The notes beneath the pieces are model-generated. The model was not told the origin of the DNA and searched no databases. It saw only the letters and a list, made by a program, of their open reading frames with translations. A stretch of 62,910 nucleotides of DNA, the filler included, from Globobulimina sp. (lineage: Eukaryota), in assembly GCA_003354225.1 (NCBI GenBank). It is 54 parts of 54 records of this genome, joined end to end, with 100 filler letters (N's around TTAATTAATTAA, not from the genome) between each part and the next. Parts side by side here need not be neighbours in the genome. Positions count along the whole stretch, not along the records: positions 7,009 to 8,076 come from PIVH01024386.1; 53 more parts are not named here. One strand, 5' to 3'. Each line of letters opens with the position of its first letter. Positions within the stretch are counted from its first letter, which is position 1. The position numbers and the translations under genes are program-made. Shown here one piece after another: positions 2,490 through 23,787 of the stretch.

Positions 2490-3404
2490 TTATTTATACC
2501 AACAATGCAATTTCATATGCACTCCTTCGCCCATTTGTGATTTAATAAACAACTTTACATATTTCTTGCCAGCCCCACCTTGAGATTTAACTATCTCTCC
2601 ATTGGTTCCATCCGCAAGACAATCCTCCACCGCATATGCACGAATTAGTTGAGTGTCGATCGGCACTTTAAATTCCATCACATCTTCGCGTCTTAATTTC
2701 GATCCAAATTCCATTTCGTGCGCATACTTATACCTACAATTAATATCTGCGAAGCCTATGCATCGTATCAATTGTTTGGCTGTTAACTGAGTGGAATAAT
2801 ATGACCACTTTTCATGCGCTGTAATACAATCAAAATCAATATCATTCGTTGTTTTTGCACGAATCCTTAATTTATTTTTCTTCTTTCTTCGCCTGAATTT
2901 ATTTTGTGAATTCATTACAGATCCGGATCCAACGGGAGTCAATGATTTGGAATCTCTCAAGCTTGGCTTGTTTGGCATGTGTTTTCTTTTTCGTTTTTCG
3001 TTTTTCTTGTTGGGGCAAACGATATGTTTTGGTACATTTGGTTGTTTTTTGACTGTCTGTTTTTTCTCTTCCTTTCTCATATCTTGTTTCGTATCGACAT
3101 CTTCTTTGATTTTTATATCTTCCTCGAATTCTTTCATTTCATTGCTTGATTCTTTGAATAATTCCAATTTAGATAACATATTATCTTCATCCACTTCACT
3201 GGACACTGATTGTTTCACATGTTGCTGTTGTATGCTATCTAAATTCAGTGCTAAAGTGACGGATTCATCCTCATATCCAATACTTACTAATTTACAATGT
3301 TTCAATACAAATTGCACATCGTTTGTATTTTCAATCAACACCATGGAGTGCATATTATTCCTAATAGCTTCCAATGTAATTTGCTCGCATTTTCCTGTGC
3401 CATT
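2490..3404 (-). CDS. Hypothetical Lys-rich protein, C-terminal part
   Basis: Open frame of ~300 aa with a stop and an AT-rich 3' region. No family recognised. Confidence 0.6.
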   Translation of the reverse strand, partial: NGTGKCEQITLEAIRNNMHSMVLIENTNDVQFVLKHCKLVSIGYEDESVTLALNLDSIQQQHVKQSVSSEVDEDNMLSKLELFKESSNEMKEFEEDIKIKEDVDTKQDMRKEEKKQTVKKQPNVPKHIVCPNKKNEKRKRKHMPNKPSLRDSKSLTPVGSGSVMNSQNKFRRRKKKNKLRIRAKTTNDIDFDCITAHEKWSYYSTQLTAKQLIRCIGFADINCRYKYAHEMEFGSKLRREDVMEFKVPIDTQLIRAYAVEDCLADGTNGEIVKSQGGAGKKYVKLFIKSQMGEGVHMKLHCWYK

Positions 3405-3504
3405 NNNNNNNNNNNNNNNNNNNNNNNNNNNNNNNNNNNNNNNNNNNNTTAATTAATTAANNNNNNNNNNNNNNNNNNNNNNNNNNNNNNNNNNNNNNNN
3501 NNNN

Positions 3505-4197
3505 AATACGTTAATATTGCCATTGAATCGATTGCATCCAACTTCGTTGCAGAAAATGTTCAATTCGTACGATATTGATTGCAGCCAAGCAGATAATAAC
3601 AAAAAATTAGAGATGCAGGAAATGAAAGACAATGAAATGGAATTAGATCTCGATGATTTGGAACAATATCAACCGAGCGAGTTTTTAGCTGAGTCGCCAT
3701 GTACAAAGATTGAGTGCGGCTATATTTATGGCGGCAATTTGGATAATTTGTATATTCGCACATTTTCATTGGAGGAATCGTTCAAAGTCGGCGCGGTTAT
3801 CGATGCCAGAGACTTTACGGGGAAATGGTATGAAGCGGAGATCATTGCGGTGCAAGATTGTGAGGGCAATGTGTATGAGAATTTGGATAAGGACAATGAC
3901 GATTATTTGGAAATACGCAGAGCGAAAATACATTATTTAGGATATTCGCAAAATTATGATGAATGGCTGTTTGTTGATACTGATTCGCATCGTATTGCAC
4001 AACGAGGCACATTCACCATTGGCCCCGATCTCAGAGCAATTCGTCGGAATACCACACATAATGCACATGTACACCAACATCCACACCCACAACATCCACA
4101 ACATCATCTTCGAAATGCACATAATAATATCATTCAGAATCAAATTCAGAATCAGAATCAAAATGTAAATCTGATGGATCTTATTCATCACAATTAA
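3505..4197 (+). CDS. Protein with a Tudor-knot/chromo-barrel-like domain, C-terminal part
   Basis: FKVGAVIDARDFTGKWYEAEI...IHYLGYSQNYDEWL...RIA is a chromo-barrel signature. His/Gln/Asn-rich tail. Confidence 0.75.
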   Translation, partial: NTLILPLNRLHPTSLQKMFNSYDIDCSQADNNKKLEMQEMKDNEMELDLDDLEQYQPSEFLAESPCTKIECGYIYGGNLDNLYIRTFSLEESFKVGAVIDARDFTGKWYEAEIIAVQDCEGNVYENLDKDNDDYLEIRRAKIHYLGYSQNYDEWLFVDTDSHRIAQRGTFTIGPDLRAIRRNTTHNAHVHQHPHPQHPQHHLRNAHNNIIQNQIQNQNQNVNLMDLIHHN

Positions 4198-4672
4198 TTG
4201 GGGCAATCTATTTAACTTTTTTCACAACAAATATATTTATTATTTAACTATAATTGAATGTTACTTTTTGATATTGTTACATTGTAATTAATTTAATATT
4301 TTAATAAATAAACTAGTGTCCACCTGAAACAAACATAAAATTATGTCATGATATGAGATCTCTGATTATAAACAACTTTAGTGATATTTTGCGATTTGGC
4401 ATCAATGTGTTTTTGTAAAATATCGAATATTTGCGTTTTCAGGCAATCTTGTATCACATTTTTGTTTTTAGGAAATTCCAGCGATTTTGCCTTTGTTTTT
4501 TGAATAATTATTGCCGTGGCGCCGCATTATATATTATTATTTTGTATCGTATAAAAATCAAAGCAATAACTANNNNNNNNNNNNNNNNNNNNNNNNNNNN
4601 NNNNNNNNNNNNNNNNTTAATTAATTAANNNNNNNNNNNNNNNNNNNNNNNNNNNNNNNNNNNNNNNNNNNN

Positions 4673-4770
4673 AAAACGTTTCTATAATTCTCTGATTTAT
4701 TTTGTCGGAAACGTTTCTATAATTCTCTGATTTATATTGTCTGAAAACGTTTCTATAATTCTCTGATATA
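4673..4770 (+). repeat. ~35-bp tandem repeat, about 3 copies
   Basis: AAACGTTTCTATAATTCTCTGAT starts near 4674, 4708 and 4745. Confidence 0.9.
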
Positions 4771-4919
4771 TCCATAATTCATATACAAATCCTTAAGTAA
4801 ATTCCGTTAGGAAAATTTTCGATAAAAAAAAAGAAAAAAAAAATATTTCGAAAAAAATGTTAAAAAAAAGTAGTACTAGTACTAGTACTACTCATAAAAA
4901 AAATCTCAAAATTTTGAAA

Positions 4920-5740
4920 TCACTGGTATGAGGGTCTATCGACCCAACCAGGATCTGTCGTCATGCCATTTAGGGACAACACAATATCTTCATCCTCATC
5001 TCCTTCTGTATGCTCCTCATGGCCATTATTTACATCCTCTCCAAATATGGGTGTTTTAATAGTATTGCTATCCCTTTTATTGTCAGGACTCTTGGTTGGA
5101 ATTATAAACTCATCATCGCCACTTACAATAAATTCATCATTGCTGTTGCCATTTGTTTCCATCTCATAGTCATCGCCTCCAACGACGAATTCATTATTTG
5201 CGAGCACCGCAACAGCATCAAACATCTCACTGGACACACTTTTAACTCTTGCAAAATCTGTGCATATATCATTCGATTGCATATTATTTGCCATTTCTGC
5301 TCCCATTGTAATTGGATGAGCATCGGCGAACCGCGCACTATTTCCATGTACATTTCTTTTTTGCTTTCTACATCTGACCATAACAAAAACACATGCGATA
5401 AAACCACATGTTGCAGCCAATAAACCTGCTAAACTCCAGGTTGCTATCTCAAACAGATTTGATTTTGCCTGGCGGCCCTGACCTGAATTAAATTTCTCTG
5501 TTGTCGAAGCAGAGGAAGTGTCCGTTCCAACCATGCCAACATTACCATCATTGAGGTTCGTGCTTGATATTTGTGACTCTGTACCGGACGTTTTTATGTG
5601 TGCGGTCAGAGTAAATGTTGTTGGTTGTGGTGTTGCTGAAGTTGACATTGTTGTTGCTTTCATAGTAGGATTATTTGTCGGATATGTACTTTGATTATAT
5701 GTTGGATAGTTACTTGGATTATCCGTCGGATATTTAATTG
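4920..5740 (-). CDS. Type I membrane protein: Pro/Thr mucin stalk, TM helix, acidic tail (3' part)
   Basis: YPTxNP repeats, Thr-rich stalk, hydrophobic IATWSLAGLLAATCGFIACVFVMV and a basic stop-transfer RCRKQKR. Confidence 0.75.
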
Positions 5741-5841
5741 NNNNNNNNNNNNNNNNNNNNNNNNNNNNNNNNNNNNNNNNNNNNTTAATTAATTAANNNN
5801 NNNNNNNNNNNNNNNNNNNNNNNNNNNNNNNNNNNNNNNNA

Positions 5842-6908
5842 GATGGACAGTACAGGTGTGGACACTGTGGGGAATGTGGAGACCATTGGTGACGCCATTG
5901 TGAACATCAAGGACTCGATTCATCAGATACAGAGCTAAAAGAAAACGATGTTCCTGTACCACAAGTCTTATGTCGTACCCTTCAGGATGGTAATCGGGCT
6001 CGTTGTGCCCCCTCTCGACAATACACACGTGATCAGTGGACATTTAGTGGACCAGTAACATGGGAGGAGTTCCTACAAATGTGTGAAACAGATCCTGGTG
6101 TACGATTGAAGGAGCGATATATCGGACCTATGACATATGACGAATGTATGATGGACTACAGTCATGAAACAGAACAACCATTTCCTCCTGAAGATTGGAC
6201 GGAGATACCAGTGGAGTGGAATCCAAGGGTTAGTAAATTTCCATACCCGGAATGGCGTCGATTACACTTGATTTATGTCAATCACATATGGGATGACGAC
6301 ACAGAAAATGACAGCGATGAACCTCGTCCTCGTACAATGGAACCAATGACAATCCAGTATATCGAACCAGCGAAGAGCTATATTGATGATATACCTGACG
6401 AGATTATTCCCATATGCAAAAGTATGCAACAATTATCAGTAGAAGAGACAAACACAAAGGAAGTTAAGAAGACACCATTGTCCAAAGATGTCAGCCCATT
6501 TCGAACCCCAGCTTTGTATGTCTGTGAATCTGATTGCTATACAACTGAGACAGATGACTTATTGGGAAACCATACCTTACATCGACAACCAGTAGAAGCC
6601 GCATCAATTAGACAGGGTTGTATGAATGCAAGAATGTTAATTTTGGGACCAATGGATACACCAATCGTTATGTTGAGTGATCTTGAGGAAGAACAAATGT
6701 GTCAAATTGCAGCTTTTATTGATTGTGGTGCAGCATTGTGCATGGATCAGAAGTCAGTTTATTTACGGACTGGAGCCAGACTGAAGGATCTAAAGGGATG
6801 CAAACATGACCATTTTGTCGGATTTGGTGGAAATTTCCGAGTTATTGGATCGGCAAGAATGCAATTTATGATGAATGGAGTAAAATTCGAACAAAGTTTC
6901 CATATTAT
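5842..6908 (+). mobile_element. LTR-retroelement-like gag/protease fragment (zinc knuckle with in-frame TGA at 5890, then an aspartic protease)
   Basis: One frame reads CGHCGECGDHW*RHC...AAFIDCGAA...VGFGG..VIG...NGVKFEQSFHI, a retropepsin D(T/S/C)GA motif with flap region. Intronless and more GC-rich than host genes. Confidence 0.65.
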
Positions 6909-7010
6909 NNNNNNNNNNNNNNNNNNNNNNNNNNNNNNNNNNNNNNNNNNNNTTAATTAATTAANNNNNNNNNNNNNNNNNNNNNNNNNNNNNNNNNNNN
7001 NNNNNNNNCT

Positions 7011-7715
7011 AGTAGCAACAGATTTATTCACTTTGCTTCATGCCAGCCTATTACTAAAAAATTGGGTGTTGTACGAACTTTAGCCAGACGTGCCCATCAG
7101 TTATCTTCTAATATGACCCATTTAAGTGAAGAAAAAGACATCCTTTTGAAAGCATTCGATCGATGTGGTTACCCAAAAGACGATATAAAACGATTCATTC
7201 ATCCAATCGGAGCATCTAAGAAACCTGAAGAGAAATCCAATCCAAAATGTGTTCTGCCATACATTCCTGGACTTAGTGGCCCTTTGACAAGTTTTCTTAA
7301 ACGATGGCAAATTACTACCTGCTTTACAAAGAAGACAACATTGGGTCATCTTCTCTACAAACGATCTCCTGAGGTCGAGTATTTTGATAGACAAAATGTT
7401 ATTTACAAAGTACATTGTTCTGGTTGCCAGAAATGCTATATAGGTCAAACAAGAAGAAAAGTTAGATGTCGGCTAAAAGACCATAAAAATGCCATTAGAC
7501 TCAAGAATGAAGAAAATGCTATTGCAAACCATGTGGTAAATTGTGGTCATCCCATCGACCCATTCAATGCCGATATTGTTGGCCAAGATAGTAGACCAAA
7601 CATTTTATCAGCCAAAGAGTCTCTTCTCATTGACAGTTGTAATACTATGAATAACTTGACTGGCTATTCACACACAGCCCTAGTCACTCTATTATCCCAA
7701 TCGATTAAATTGTAA
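7011..7715 (+). CDS. PLE polyprotein C-terminus: RT thumb and GIY-YIG endonuclease with CCHH motif
   Basis: VIY..CxxC..YIGQT, catalytic R and E, and two conserved His (Penelope/Poseidon-type). Confidence 0.92.
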   Translation, partial: SSNRFIHFASCQPITKKLGVVRTLARRAHQLSSNMTHLSEEKDILLKAFDRCGYPKDDIKRFIHPIGASKKPEEKSNPKCVLPYIPGLSGPLTSFLKRWQITTCFTKKTTLGHLLYKRSPEVEYFDRQNVIYKVHCSGCQKCYIGQTRRKVRCRLKDHKNAIRLKNEENAIANHVVNCGHPIDPFNADIVGQDSRPNILSAKESLLIDSCNTMNNLTGYSHTALVTLLSQSIKL

Positions 7716-7903
7716 ACACCCTACTATTTTGTTCCTCTTATCTACTGTTGTAAATGACTCGCTGCCTGTATAAGAGTAGTTTGTTTTCTCCTCTCTTTGC
7801 TGTTTGAGCTCTGTGTTTATACAAGTCCCATTTTTCCTACTTAATGTGAGTGATTCCTTATTGTTTCTAATTTATTTTTGGTGTTTCATTTTTACTTTTC
7901 AGT

Positions 7904-7945
7904 GTGTTCTGATGATGGTCAGTGTTTTGACCGAAATATAAACAT
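7904..7945 (+). ncRNA. Minimal type I hammerhead ribozyme
   Basis: Stem I GUGUU(7904-08)/AACAU(7941-45). Core CUGAUGA 7909-15 plus U. Stem II GGUCAG-UGUU-UUGACC. GAAA 7933-36, palindromic AUAU helix III. Predicted cleavage after A7940. Confidence 0.8.
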
Positions 7946-8033
7946 TTCCATCTATTCTGCTTACTTTTATCGCTGATACCGTCTATTGAATCAATTTATA
8001 ATGTCTGAACAGCGATCTACTGCATTTGATATT

Positions 8034-8076
8034 ATGTTCATGTTCATGTTCATTCATATTCATGTTCATGTTCATG
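8034..8076 (+). repeat. (ATGTTC)n microsatellite abutting the PLE 3' end
   Basis: About 7 imperfect hexamer units running to the contig end. Confidence 0.85.
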
Positions 8077-9017
8077 NNNNNNNNNNNNNNNNNNNNNNNN
8101 NNNNNNNNNNNNNNNNNNNNTTAATTAATTAANNNNNNNNNNNNNNNNNNNNNNNNNNNNNNNNNNNNNNNNNNNNCCATACAATAATTCAAAATTTTAT
8201 TATACAATTTCACAAAATTTATATCACAACACCAACGGTGGCTCCCCCCCCATTTCATGAACGAAAGGGGCCTCCGCTTTCGGCAATAGATGATTAAAAT
8301 ACTCTCTCTCTTTTTCAAAGAGTATTATATACTCTTGATTCATAATACTAAAGATTGGGTTAATAAAAACACACATTCTTTGTTTTTGTTGGTTGTTAAA
8401 TGATAGCAAGAAAATGGGTTTCAGAAAACACACACTCTCTTTTTCAAAGAATATTACATAATATTCTTGATTCTATAATACAAAAGAGTAGGTTATTAAA
8501 AACACATACTCTTCGTGTTAGGAATTTTGCATATTTTTGGAAATTAAATAAAGGGAGTGGTTTCAAGATAATACGTACTCTCACTTTTTCGAAAGATATC
8601 ACATATCTTTAAAATGGTATGGCCGTCAAGCTTTGATGCATTGCGGCCATTTGTATCAAAAACATATCAAAACACTGTACAGCATCAAATGTCTGTACTT
8701 ATATACTATATAAAAAAAATTGGTCATTGATAATTCAATGATATTTACGACATATTAGCTGTTCTATGTCACTGCCTATAAATGCTAGTGACCTTGGCTA
8801 GTTATGCGTGTAAAAATCCGCATATATACAGAGAAGCCTTATTCGACCCGTATTTTCCATAATATATACAGAAACTTTGATTACCATAACCGTATCACAT
8901 ATACATAGAGGTAGACCATAATTTATTTTTGGATTTTCTGGAGATTTTTAACTTTTTATGGGTTTTCTAAATTTTTTTAATACAAAAATAAATAGATTAA
9001 CAATTTTTGAAGGCATA

Positions 9018-9242
9018 TTAAAGTCCAAGCGCGGGATTTCCCGGCGGAGGAGGCGGTGGCAGATATGCTGTGCAATTGCTACAGGTCTGATCAGAGTCCG
9101 GTCCCGACAAATTTCGATCTATACGATTAAGTACACCGCAAGTTTCGCAAGTGACGGGTTGTCCAGCATCAGGTTCCGACCGCCTTGGTCTATTGTGTCC
9201 GGAATAGTATCTATGCCGAACTTTGTTAACACGAGGGGCGTG
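9018..9242 (-). CDS. C-terminal fragment with a CxxC..CxxC zinc ribbon and poly-Pro
   Basis: Manual translation ...VTCETCGVLN..DQTCSNCTAYLPPPPPPGNPALGL*, in a GC-rich island. Confidence 0.4.
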   Translation of the reverse strand, partial: HAPRVNKVRHRYYSGHNRPRRSEPDAGQPVTCETCGVLNRIDRNLSGPDSDQTCSNCTAYLPPPPPPGNPALGL

Positions 9243-9344
9243 TGNNNNNNNNNNNNNNNNNNNNNNNNNNNNNNNNNNNNNNNNNNNNTTAATTAATTAA
9301 NNNNNNNNNNNNNNNNNNNNNNNNNNNNNNNNNNNNNNNNNNNN

Positions 9345-10412
9345 GCACAAGGCCAGGTAGCCAGACGTCCCGTGGGTATCCATGCAATCATTGAAGATGG
9401 ACCAGTCAGACAGGACATGTATGTACAACATCTGGTTGGAGGAGGTACACGACAACAAGAAAACTTCTCGGTGGAACAAGATGCATTATCAGCCCTTGTC
9501 ATCAACTCTGAAAAAGATTTGAATGAAATCACATCAGACGAAGCAAGAAAAGTGGTCAAATTCATATGGGATAACGCCAGAGCAGGACATCCAGTCACAA
9601 CACATGATATGGTTGGCCGTTTGAAGCCACTGAGTAAAGGTGACATTTATACTGTTGTTTCTTATTGTTTAGATGGCAGTTTGGGGAATGCAGCCCGATA
9701 TACAGGAATGCAAATAATGCCTGAGTTTCCACAGGTGTATGATAAAGAAATTTGTGCAGTGGAAAAGAATCGAGTTTTGAAAATTGCTTTGGAAACAAGC
9801 AATTCAGTGCAACAAGCGGCTCAGGAAAATCAGCGCAGTCGACAGCAACGACCCCAAAATGGTGGAGGTCCCAGACGTTCATTTGGACCCAGCAGACCAC
9901 AGAGACAAAGAGGGCAACCTGGACAAGGGTATGTCTGTCACACATGTGGCAAGACAGGTCATTGGAGGCCAAACTGTCCCGACAGAGATACAGCACGTGA
10001 TCAAAATGCAAGAAGAGAACCGAATCCACAGTCATTGGTCATCATTGCTACCATTGCATCAGATCAACAACCGGAAGTGGCAACAACAAAAGAAGAAATT
10101 GACAATATCGAATGGGATTATAAGGTACCAGGGCCATTACAATATTCTGAGTATTTATATCAATTTGCAATAAAAACAGGTCAATCGTTTCCTTTAGGAA
10201 CCTTTGAAAATTTACCAGAGTTTTTGGTACCGGGTTGCGACTTTCCATATTCCTATCATAAAGAGGCCTATGACAGTTGGGTATATTATACTGAAAGAGG
10301 GGAACCAGAGGAATTTGACTGGATAACACCAACGTTAGAGGCTATGCGTAAAAAAGAGTTAGAACGATTAGAAGCATCAGTCGTGCACAAACGTGTAACT
10401 TCAAGCAATGTG
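9345..10412 (+). mobile_element. Gag-like ORF with a CX2CX4HX4C zinc knuckle (LTR-retroelement-like), partial
   Basis: R/Q/G-rich segment, then CHTCGKTGHWRPNC at 9936-9977. Intronless and open across the whole contig. Confidence 0.7.
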
Positions 10413-10512
10413 NNNNNNNNNNNNNNNNNNNNNNNNNNNNNNNNNNNNNNNNNNNNTTAATTAATTAANNNNNNNNNNNNNNNNNNNNNNNNNNNNNNNN
10501 NNNNNNNNNNNN

Positions 10513-11580
10513 TTCAACATAATTATATGAATTTTATTACGCATAGAATAACTCATAAACACTCGAATTATTCCTATTTCGTTTCTACGTTTCGGCTCCA
10601 ACGGCAATGATTCAACATATTCATGGCAATGTCAATCAAGATCTATTATTTCAAGCAATTGGTATTTTATGCATCATTGCTGGCTCATTATTAATATACA
10701 AACGGTCGAATACATTGATTTTATCAGCAGCATTTATCACCATTTACAGCGCAGTTCATCAAGCATTTAAATCCGAATACGCACAGGTTTGTTTTTCACT
10801 TTTTGTGTACATTTCGTTTTTCAAATATAATAATATACACAAAATGCGCAGCGTTTCCTGGTCGAAATTTGTCACATAAACGTAAGCAAAGAATTTCAGA
10901 ATTTGTTTGTGTTGATAATACCAGCTGTTATATCATATTTTATCTGTGGTGTTATCAAGCAATCGTTTACAACAATAATCAGCATACTGCGTATTATTAT
11001 ATTCGCGATATTTGGATACTGTTTAAGTACATTGATAGTATCTCGCGTTCAATGTGAAATATATCACATTAATATTTACACCACAAACATTCCGGGTTTA
11101 TCCGGTGAACAAAGTTAAGACATTTATATCAGTCATACAGTATTTTTCATTGCATTTAATGATAATAATTAACGAACAGATGTAGCGTTTTGCGTTTTTG
11201 GTTCGCTCGCCTTATTTTACACAATGTATCAAAGATTAGCTATTTCATTCAGTGCTGTTATTGTTGTTGGTGCTGCAGCGGCAATGTCATATTTTCTCGA
11301 TGTCACGCAATTTGACGAAGTGTTGGATTTCTGTTATCTTTGCACTGTGTCACATACCCAAAATGTTGAAATAAATTTGAAATTATTACTGCCGATCGCT
11401 GGAATGATATCGTCCATTTTATTGGGATGTAATATTTTCGATAATACTATAATTGAACAGGGCATATATATGATGTTTGGCACATTATTGAGTACATTTG
11501 GTTTGGTGACAATATTAAGTGCGTCAAACCACAGCACATTGACGCCATCAATGTTTTCCTTTACTTTGGTAGTGATCGGC
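10513..11580 (+). CDS. Multi-pass membrane protein, spliced, partial
   Basis: Three successive hydrophobic ORFs separated by short AT-rich intron-like gaps. Family not recognised. Confidence 0.5.
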
Positions 11581-11714
11581 NNNNNNNNNNNNNNNNNNNN
11601 NNNNNNNNNNNNNNNNNNNNNNNNTTAATTAATTAANNNNNNNNNNNNNNNNNNNNNNNNNNNNNNNNNNNNNNNNNNNNGGAAATACAAAAAGAGATAT
11701 TAAATGACAAAAAA

Positions 11715-12748
11715 TTGAGTAGTTTTGATAATGCATTGAAATTGACATTGGATTACTTTGCGAGTAACAAAAACAAAGAGGTCAAGAATACGTTTGATGA
11801 TAAGACTGCTTTTGATAAGAAACTGAGTAAATGGCATAGCGAGAAACCAATGTTGTTATTTGGCAAATTATTAGATTTAATATCACAGAAACAAGAATAT
11901 GCGGTGCGGTTTGCGGATAATAATGGATTATTTTTAGGATTTAAGTATTTAGAAAGGGAGCTATCCTTTTTGCAAAATGAAATGAAGGAATTGCATTGTC
12001 GGGAATATGGAGTACAGTGTTTACAGTCGGAATTACTAAATAAACAAATGACATTGGCCAAGTTATGCAGATTATTGCTTTTTGTGGCATCGTACAAACC
12101 AAATAAAGCATTGATTTCACGCGATCAGAAATTGATAAATTGTATCGCGTATTGCATTTATTATATTATACTATCCTTTGAACAATACCAATGCGATGAG
12201 CTAAGCATTGAATCCATCCATTTGTCATCCACTTGTTGCGAAATCAAAGAGATTCGCGACCATATTGCCAATAATGCGTCGTACTGTAAATTATTTTACA
12301 AGAACATCAATGAATATTTATTATATTCGCCACCAAATAATAATAAATTACAAGTCTTGCAGTATTTATTTGATTTTTTAGACAATTTATTTGGGAATGA
12401 ATCCTTTATCAAAGTGTCGATATCATTGAATAATCCCAATGCAATCTCCAGCAATCCTCACATTTATGTGGCATTATTCAATTATTTATCCAAATACAGC
12501 GACTATGTACATTCTGCGCGTATGGGACAAGAGGAAATGATGAAGTTTGAGATCAAACAATCGGTGGTGTCCTCCATATTGACTGCGCTTGCGACCTTAT
12601 TTGGGCCCAATGAGCTATTTATTCGCGAGATATTGATGAAGGATACCGACATAAATGAGCGGATCGAGATATTAAAGACCCATTTGATTCATTTAAATCG
12701 AATGTTTATGCAATTTGAGGAGAAGAATCCATTGAAAGACATGAATCG
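11715..12748 (+). CDS. Hypothetical alpha-helical (ARM/HEAT-like) protein, partial
   Basis: ~345 aa open frame with Leu-rich amphipathic helices. Confidence 0.55.
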
Positions 12749-23355: not shown

Positions 23356-23787
23356 TTGAAACGGGAATGGGACATGGATATGAATGAATGTGCGAATAGA
23401 TTGCCTGGTCCTTTGACACCTGAATTGGGCAGTGTCGTTTCCTTGTTGTGTGACAAGGCTTATTACTATTGCGATAGAGTGTACGAAACTTTGATCGAAA
23501 CTGCTGTGATCGAAATCGACATCGATTCTAAGACCGATTTTCATCATTTTATGGTCGTTTGCGACAGAGTGCTGTTTTCCGGAGAAAAGATCGAGGCCGA
23601 ATTTGTACTGTGTTTGTTCTGTGTGGCCGGTCGTTTGGCTGTTCAAGTTCACGATGATCAAGAAGAGGTGTTGAAGGTTTGCGATTGGTTGGCCACCTTT
23701 CTCGAAGCCAAATTGTCCCATTTCATCGAAAATGTGTGCGGCGGAATGCAAGAATGCTTGGATATGGTGATGATTGATATGAAATAA
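23356..23787 (+). CDS. Bcl-2-like fold protein (divergent BH1/BH2), 5' truncated
   Basis: FMVVCDRVLFSG..VLCLFCVAGRLAV..VLKVCDWLATFLEAKLSHFIENVCGG aligns by eye with Bcl-xL helices 4-8. Confidence 0.55.
   Translation: MKREWDMDMNECANRLPGPLTPELGSVVSLLCDKAYYYCDRVYETLIETAVIEIDIDSKTDFHHFMVVCDRVLFSGEKIEAEFVLCLFCVAGRLAVQVHDDQEEVLKVCDWLATFLEAKLSHFIENVCGGMQECLDMVMIDMK

Follow-up and report, generated by a model that had tools for sequence, protein, structure and literature searches.

The 3' end of a hammerhead-bearing Penelope/Poseidon-type retrotransposon, most likely nematode-borne, in a Globobulimina genome assembly

The window, by which we mean the whole 62,910-nt stretch of Globobulimina DNA analysed here, consists of 54 unrelated contigs of about 1.07 kb each joined by N linkers, and contigs side by side in it are therefore not genomic neighbours. 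One of these contigs, at 7009-8076 (G000:C24386, from an assembly of 70 Mb in 48,370 contigs), carries the pLTR studied here. This 1.07-kb contig is the 3' end, pLTR plus tail, of a Penelope/Poseidon-type retrotransposon, on which the stop of a GIY-YIG frame is followed in order by a predicted 57-nt intron, a minimal type I hammerhead, a restart ATG, a 34-nt tail and a microsatellite. A sequence-only reading of the same DNA had proposed a PLE 3' end with a pLTR; all of its motifs are in place when checked letter by letter, and the features of the ORF, the hammerhead and the tail bear the proposal out. It had also called the pLTR complete, which cannot be demonstrated because no upstream partner copy of the studied family is assembled. 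The features are as follows.

7011..7715, plus strand: 3' part of the PLE ORF, RT thumb/linker and GIY-YIG endonuclease; 234 codons open from the contig start
7713-7715, plus strand: ORF stop TAA, checked letter by letter
7769..7774, plus strand: TATAAG; present, position not conserved, unsupported as a promoter element
7846..7902, plus strand: predicted 57-nt spliceosomal intron, from GTGAGT donor to TTTTCAG acceptor; 7 copies, control 0
7896-7902, plus strand: acceptor TTTTCAG
7904..7945, plus strand: minimal type I hammerhead, from pattern, covariation and the published min-HHR consensus (PMC4209133)
7904-7908/7941-7945, plus strand: stem I, 5 bp
7909-7915, plus strand: core CUGAUGA, with the extra U at 7916
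7917-7922/7927-7932, plus strand: stem II, 6 bp
7933-7936, plus strand: GAAA
7936-7939, plus strand: palindrome AUAU (helix III), with the predicted cut after A7940
7937..7942, plus strand: TATAAA overlapping the cut site; of the AATAAA signal the studied copy has this variant alone
7970..7982, plus strand: short conserved motif ending CCRT, between hammerhead and ATG; 30/32 ends
8001..8034, plus strand: restart ATG with the first 34 nt of the ORF, making up the PLE tail; the element ends at 8034/8035
8034..8076, plus strand: (ATGTTC)n microsatellite, period 6, 7.5 copies; the contig ends inside it

The PLE ORF matches the GIY-YIG Pfam model at E 0.0036 and 18 bits, under the 22.6 cut-off, and the GIY-YIG/HTH_animal clusters of the atlas at 0.97. 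Like its relatives, it has a CxxC between VIY and YIG and an HxxxxxH with two His downstream, which together form the CCHH finger (two Cys between GIY and YIG) of EN+ PLEs. This finger is given in PMC8557442 as a criterion for EN+ PLEs and a linker zinc finger as a criterion for clades; a CX2-5CxxC zinc finger is absent from the RT-EN linker of the assembly ORFs. As it has the CCHH finger but not the linker finger of Neptune and Nematis, the element is by its architecture of Penelope/Poseidon type. The contig itself holds the 3' part only; RT motifs lie in the same frame in a close relative, L008 (62%), and the ORF of L017 matches RVT_1 at 58 bits and GIY-YIG at 25.6 bits, both above cut-off. 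Through these two relatives the single ORF of EN+ PLEs, with RT plus GIY-YIG at its C-terminus, can be recognized.

A tblastn search with the PLE ORF returned 47 matches in the assembly, 43 of them free of internal stops; some of the weaker matches are Naiads. The studied element is likely a young member of a radiation of at least two dozen PLE families in the assembly, which are 30-65% identical in protein. In a FastTree phylogeny of 54 sequences, midpoint-rooted, with animal homologues included, curated Penelope/Poseidon references left out and weak deep support, the 24 assembly ORFs used (24/24) fall into a single clade that also takes in 5 unnamed metagenome proteins, with a support of 0.98 when P0124 is included and 0.82 when it is not. 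The homologues that bear names are spread over many animal phyla, with identities of 28-37% and none close among the matches listed; the one named nematode homologue, from Trichuris (31%), is not sister to the assembly clade in the tree. A protein scan of JGI metagenomes for relatives gave 108 pattern matches, of which 0 were confirmed. In L013 and L017, which represent two families related to the studied one, the end of an ORF runs into a pLTR and then into the next open PLE N-terminus, which is the partial-tandem pLTR layout of EN+ PLEs; a tandem joint of the studied family itself is not among the assembled contigs. The assembly also holds two long Naiad-type PLEs, L082 (G000:C337) and L083 (G000:C345), with 967 and 1076 open codons, an N-terminal GIY-YIG, a CxC motif and RT, a same-strand upstream coiled-coil ORF1-like frame of 214-255 aa, and a slightly nematode-like composition.

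A minimal-hammerhead pattern has 36 matches in the assembly as against 1 for the reversed control. The isolated 42-mer folds into stems I and II (z = -1.9, with 9/200 shuffles equally stable), and stem I has nearly no weight when folded in longer context with ViennaRNA. The hammerhead follows the stop in 25 of the 30 PLE loci returned by tblastn; among the remaining five, four contigs stop short of its position and one is without its 5' half. In L030 (G000:C45719), the 5' half is deleted and the acceptor, GAAA, AATAAA and downstream motif are intact. These 25 loci, together with L005, L058, L046, L052 and L056, make up a set of 30 ends; the pattern was relaxed by hand for L017 and L029, and pairing was never demanded in picking the ends, although core and cut triplet were partly demanded by the pattern. 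Stem II is paired in 149/150 cells of this set. At its positions 2-5, 119/120 cells are paired versus 54 ± 6 (maximum 82) with swapped partners, and all four Watson-Crick types occur at positions 2 and 4; likewise, stem I is paired in 85/90 cells versus 42 ± 5 with swapped partners, these counts not being probabilities, as related copies are not independent. The spread of stem II pair types would nevertheless be hard to obtain without selection. The helix III palindrome is found in 30/30 ends (ACGU 13, AUAU 10, AAUU 6, AGCU 1) and the canonical core in 28/30, with one core change each in L005 and L017. G10.1-C11.1 is seen in 28/30, the other two being G-U, and the extra nucleotide, A or U, is always present.

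The sequence-only reading had described a minimal type I hammerhead with a palindromic helix III, and had made its case depend on whether other copies conserve the core and covary in stem II; both core conservation and covariation are present across the 30 ends, and they back the description. It had further pointed to a covariance-model search, and here Rfam gave no hammerhead family among 7 matches up to E 10 in the region 3000-12000. Since min-HHRs lack helix III, this miss does not lower the claim of a min-HHR.

Other hammerheads occur in the same data. Eight of the 36 pattern matches belong to a second, near-identical minimal hammerhead repeat (L035:1501, L039:685, L042:895, L043, L045, L053:1000), which lies in protist-like contigs, at some sites behind a basic low-complexity ORF, with no adjoining GIY-YIG frame seen; it is probably of genuinely foraminiferan origin. 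The protist-like contigs L044:1145 and L055 (G000:C12634, C30734) carry a third repeat, hammerhead-like but weak in its stems. A pattern scan of JGI metagenome contigs recovered 14 loci with similar minimal hammerheads (L142-L155); as these have no tblastn match to the PLE ORF, they do not belong to the studied family.

Upstream of the hammerhead, GTRAGTGATT occurs 40-68 nt ahead of the core 7 times in the assembly and 0 times in the control. Introns of 56-62 nt are predicted in 10 copies from two subfamilies, all 10 with a GTRAG donor, and in 27/30 ends, versus 7.0 in shuffles, no more than 20 nt separate a T-rich acceptor from the core. The intron of the earlier reading stands, as a conserved, predicted intron of 5'-UTR type with its donor in 7 close copies. 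The joint 7845/7903 is absent from the 4 contig sets compared, an absence with no bearing on expression, and the one joint listed is that of a diverged family member. The abutment of acceptor and hammerhead is confirmed in position; it is not new, for the case of D. virilis has been published (PMC4209133). The acceptor stops 1 nt short of helix I, so splicing would leave the minimal motif as it is. In a folding model, stem II drops from 0.55 to 0.05 after splicing in the studied copy. We treat this drop as peculiar to that copy and to the model, because the candidate pairings of the CCRT motif with loop II or the core arm, which we rejected, are no better for cognate than for swapped partners (P=0.22, 0.065).

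The putative TATA-like box is present in its letters, but not beyond chance: TATAWR occurs in 3/7 close copies versus a shuffle mean of 1.4 (P=0.15), at three different distances from the donor (-77, -86, -34), and arises in 15% of shuffles of the studied segment. A TATA-box promoter was rejected on these grounds. An AATAAA within 30 nt after the cut is seen in 18/30 ends versus a shuffle mean of 0.9 (maximum 5) and is a possible poly(A) signal. The CCRT motif is found in 30/32 ends versus a shuffle mean of 2.2 (maximum 8), its pattern having been written after the sequences were seen; it forms a small hairpin in some families only.

From the ATG at 8001, MSEQRSTAFDI reads to 8033. The restart ATG, as the sequence-only reading had called it, finds its counterpart in the open PLE N-terminus after the pLTR in the related L013 and L017. 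That reading had also expected MSEQRSTAFDI to continue into an ORF in other copies. An independent 80-nt contig departs from the window beyond 8034 and keeps the frame open over another 10 codons, so far agreeing with the expectation; this contig, short and of depth 3, is compatible with a tandem ORF continuation rather than proof of one. The marine metagenome of another study that holds it also carries 7815-8004 with one difference. Likeness among close copies ends, by eye, near +34 or -2 from the ATG, which would be in keeping with the PLE tail of 30-40 nt known from PMC8557442 and PMC11167929 and with the pair of sites at which RT starts in PAc. The (ATGTTC)n microsatellite beyond the tail is a probable insertion target; L058 likewise ends in a simple repeat past its tail.

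By analogy with Penelope of D. virilis and with PAc, we infer the following course of transcription, splicing, cleavage and reverse transcription. In a tandem array, an internal promoter would lie in the pLTR of the upstream copy, a short intron would be removed from the 5' leader, and translation would start from the ATG 61 nt past the hammerhead cut site. Having no helix III of its own, the hammerhead would be mostly silent as a monomer and might cut when two copies pair via AUAU or when an element protein assists; dimer cleavage has reportedly been treated by Lunse et al. Together with the adjacent A-rich signal, the hammerhead could shorten the transcript at the pLTR downstream. Reverse transcription would set in at internal sites of the RNA, some -2 or +34 from the ATG, giving rise to the tail.

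Independently of the host, the hammerhead-shaped motif might be kept for a role other than cleavage, such as protein binding, RNA folding or 3'-end signalling, with cutting weak or dispensable. Cutting in the leader would leave the ORF without its cap, the cleavage of published min-HHRs is poor even in dimeric form (PMC4209133), PAc catalytic mutants leave in vitro insertion unaffected and no PAc RNA-seq reads end at the cut (PMC11167929). Against such a role, families with 30-65% protein identity have retained the core, G10.1-C11.1, the NUH cut triplet and the palindrome, and the PAc HHR does cut with protein (PMC11167929); we regard a role other than cleavage as rather unlikely, and retain conditional cleavage as the preferred reading of the motif.

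The acceptor raises a question of its own. In 20 other families the acceptor and AU-rich tract are kept, and a GTRAG donor within 130 nt is found in 0/20. Families with a strong 3' splice site but no GTRAG donor, a possible outron, include L010-L031, L056 and L100. Across a single nematode PLE radiation the acceptor might serve in two ways, closing the 56-62 nt cis-intron in the studied family and one other and, in the 20 donorless families, acting as a spliced-leader trans-splice site, an idea that we hold to be unlikely. Trans-splicing at the donorless acceptor would give the downstream tandem copy a capped leader, operon-style. It is favoured by an acceptor TT in 18/20 and a +1 G in 16/20 donorless families, by the depletion of GTA in them (13 vs 22 ± 4) and by a donor position common to at most 3/30 ORFs, up to the last 240 codons. 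Against it, weak GTGA-type donors are slightly enriched (17 vs 11 ± 3), and an assembly search without positive control found no SL1 gene. A literature search by title or abstract start found nothing on spliced-leader trans-splicing at PLE acceptors.

The host was the other major question, the sequence-only reading having taken it to be probably rhizarian unless the contig belonged to a metazoan contaminant. The bulk of the assembly is foraminiferan, as judged from one gene tested, the window ORF 1448-2236, with 4/4 homologues from Bolivina. The assembly also holds nematode DNA, namely 16 Srv chemoreceptor matches and one cuticle collagen, and the top atlas rows are Nematoda. Nematode DNA within benthic foraminifera has been reported (PMC6547873). 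Short contigs of nematode type are L052, L057 and L059-L073. Nuclear hormone receptors, TTR-52, astacin, SL1 and 18S rRNA were looked for in the assembly without a match, 4/5 of these searches being without positive control and the one for 18S rRNA using a stricter first look. Srv and collagen are matched but these other markers are not, as though a filter had taken out the animal genes that are easy to recognise. The sole gene-level link of the elements to a nematode is L052, of a sister subfamily, in which the hammerhead core of a pLTR lies 152 nt behind an Srv stop; this pLTR is 83% identical over 109 nt to the pLTR of the clade member L024. The L052 contig could be chimeric.

Composition, codon use and splice signals provide further lines of evidence. 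Markov models were trained on 17 nematode contigs, which are short and mostly membrane-protein exons, and 15 long protist contigs, five long retroelement- or virus-like contigs having been left out of the protist set. The studied contig ranks first of the 54 window contigs in all four settings; at order 3 it scores +2.31, the nematode leave-one-out range being 0.04-2.96. Scores above 0 are reached by 32/37 PLE loci versus 8/233 chunks of 40 independent long contigs, and 1/233 chunks scores as high as the studied contig. Synonymous codon use falls on the nematode side in 27/30 PLE ORFs, 17/17 nematode stretches and 3/38 protist ORFs; with the codons of R, S, P, T and A, which have CG-bearing synonyms, removed, the counts are 18/30, 16/17 and 3/38. 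Acceptors carry TT at -6/-5 in 27/30 PLE ends versus 2/16 protist introns, which, as heuristically predicted, end A-rich and have GTRAGT donors in 0/16; a U at -5 is a hallmark of C. elegans acceptors (PMC4889670). Finally, eukaryote-named homologues are all animals among the 240 listed of 2520 + 326, three rows bearing bacterial labels.

Transposons may differ in composition from host genes. Retroelement-like window contigs at 5841 and 9345 also score nematode-like; mobile DNA in this assembly is not automatically nematode-like, as negative scores are given by a protist-like RT contig (window 38525) and by the other hammerhead repeat. At 5893-6906 and 9345-10412 (plus strand) of the window, frames that are Gag/protease-like and zinc-knuckle retroelement-like lie on contigs with nematode-like scores. 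Among the otherwise protist-like long contigs, the 5.1-kb L089 (G000:C700) has a strong CpG depletion (o/e 0.23) and a high nematode-side score. Flanks beyond the elements are mixed, with 6-7/14 nematode-like and several protist-like, L014 strongly so.

The same element and mechanism could reside in the foraminifer itself, as a radiation of C-terminal-endonuclease PLEs in Rhizaria that is either old or derived from animal prey. The foraminiferan bulk of the assembly (4/4 homologues of ORF 1448-2236 from Bolivina), the protist-like flanks and an intron length that agrees with predicted protist introns (median 62 nt) speak for this, as does the different hammerhead repeat in protist-like contigs (L035, L039, L042, L043, L045, L053). 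Nuclear hormone receptors, TTR-52, astacin and SL1 went unmatched, in searches without positive control, so that the nematode share seems small, which points the same way. Opposed to a foraminiferan residence are the elements' own nematode-like composition, codon usage and splicing signals, the pLTR behind an Srv gene, the single clade formed by the assembly ORFs, and the lack of any rhizarian name in the 240 homologue rows listed (of 2520 + 326). A literature search by title found no description of PLEs in foraminifera or Rhizaria, and the text and supplement of PMC8557442 are without those words; one supplement file of PMC4209133 lay outside the search and may bear on host range. A foraminiferan residence appears distinctly improbable. 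Composition, codons, splice signals and Srv linkage probably place the element with a metazoan contaminant, making the rhizarian host of the sequence-only reading doubtful.

An origin in another small animal (e.g. a flatworm, rotifer or crustacean), or a clade split over several animals, would suit the named homologues from many phyla at 28-37% identity with none close, the T-rich acceptors, GTRAGT donors and AATAAA that are general animal signals, and the Bcl-2-like ORF and Naiads (L082, L083) of animal type with phylum not named, but is very improbable given that the phylum-specific animal genes found are nematode only (the markers searched being nematode) and that the U bias at -5/-6 is in line with the nematode acceptor (PMC4889670). 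The Bcl-2-family-like ORF, at 23356-23784 (plus strand) of the window, has an E of 6e-7, just below cut-off, on a contig of near-neutral composition, and may be an animal or an unusual protist gene. Taken together, we consider a nematode to be probably the host of the element. The best overall reading, which we hold to be likely, is that of a young Penelope/Poseidon-type 3' end, most likely nematode-borne and assembled with the foraminifer.

The PLE hammerhead, the leader intron ending at helix I, the tail and the dimer logic are already published, and PLE-linked min-HHRs are known in Caenorhabditis briggsae and C. remanei (PMC4209133 supplement). With all these in print, the element is an addition to a known type. 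What it adds is a diverse, apparently intact set of Penelope families with hammerheads, among which the dimer palindrome comes in four versions; they constitute a panel for testing why PLEs retain ribozymes. With nematode DNA present in the assembly, a host check is needed before animal-type elements from its short contigs are ascribed to a rhizarian. Were the foraminifer the host after all, canonical EN+ PLEs would extend beyond the animals and conifers in which they are described (PMC8557442), and this would be new. Likewise, if the donorless acceptors were trans-spliced, a retrotransposon would be using the spliced-leader machinery of its host for tandem copies.

Among the systems closest to it, the element resembles the metazoan PLE min-HHRs of Cervera and de la Pena 2014 (PMC4209133) in the type I form, the short helix I, a helix II of 5-7 bp, the extra nucleotide between 9 and 10.1, G10.1-C11.1, the palindromic 15.2-16.2, and the U-rich 5' and AU-rich 3' flanks; it differs in that the new families have no close named relative and that cleavage is predicted. 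With Penelope of D. virilis it shares a short 5'-leader intron with its 3' end at the 5' side of helix I (PMC4209133), as well as a 34-bp repeat or tail and an ATG downstream (PMC2377424; PMC4209133). In contrast, the Penelope intron is 75 nt rather than 57 nt, the acceptor here lies 1 nt before helix I, and Penelope has a TATA-less internal promoter (PMC2377424), whereas none is mapped here. The Poseidon element PAc of Anolis carolinensis (PMC11167929) likewise has GIY-YIG after RT, pLTR and ORF in a tandem layout, a hammerhead, AT-rich targets and a tail from internal RT starts; unlike in PAc, where the ORF starts within stem II, the ATG here is 61 nt past the cut and the ends lie near -2/+34. 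Neptune, Nematis, Hydra, Naiad and Chlamys (Craig et al. 2021, PMC8557442) have pLTRs, tails, GIY-YIG and RT in common with the element, which lacks the CX2-5CxxC linker finger of Neptune and Nematis and, unlike Naiad and Chlamys, carries its endonuclease at the C-terminus.
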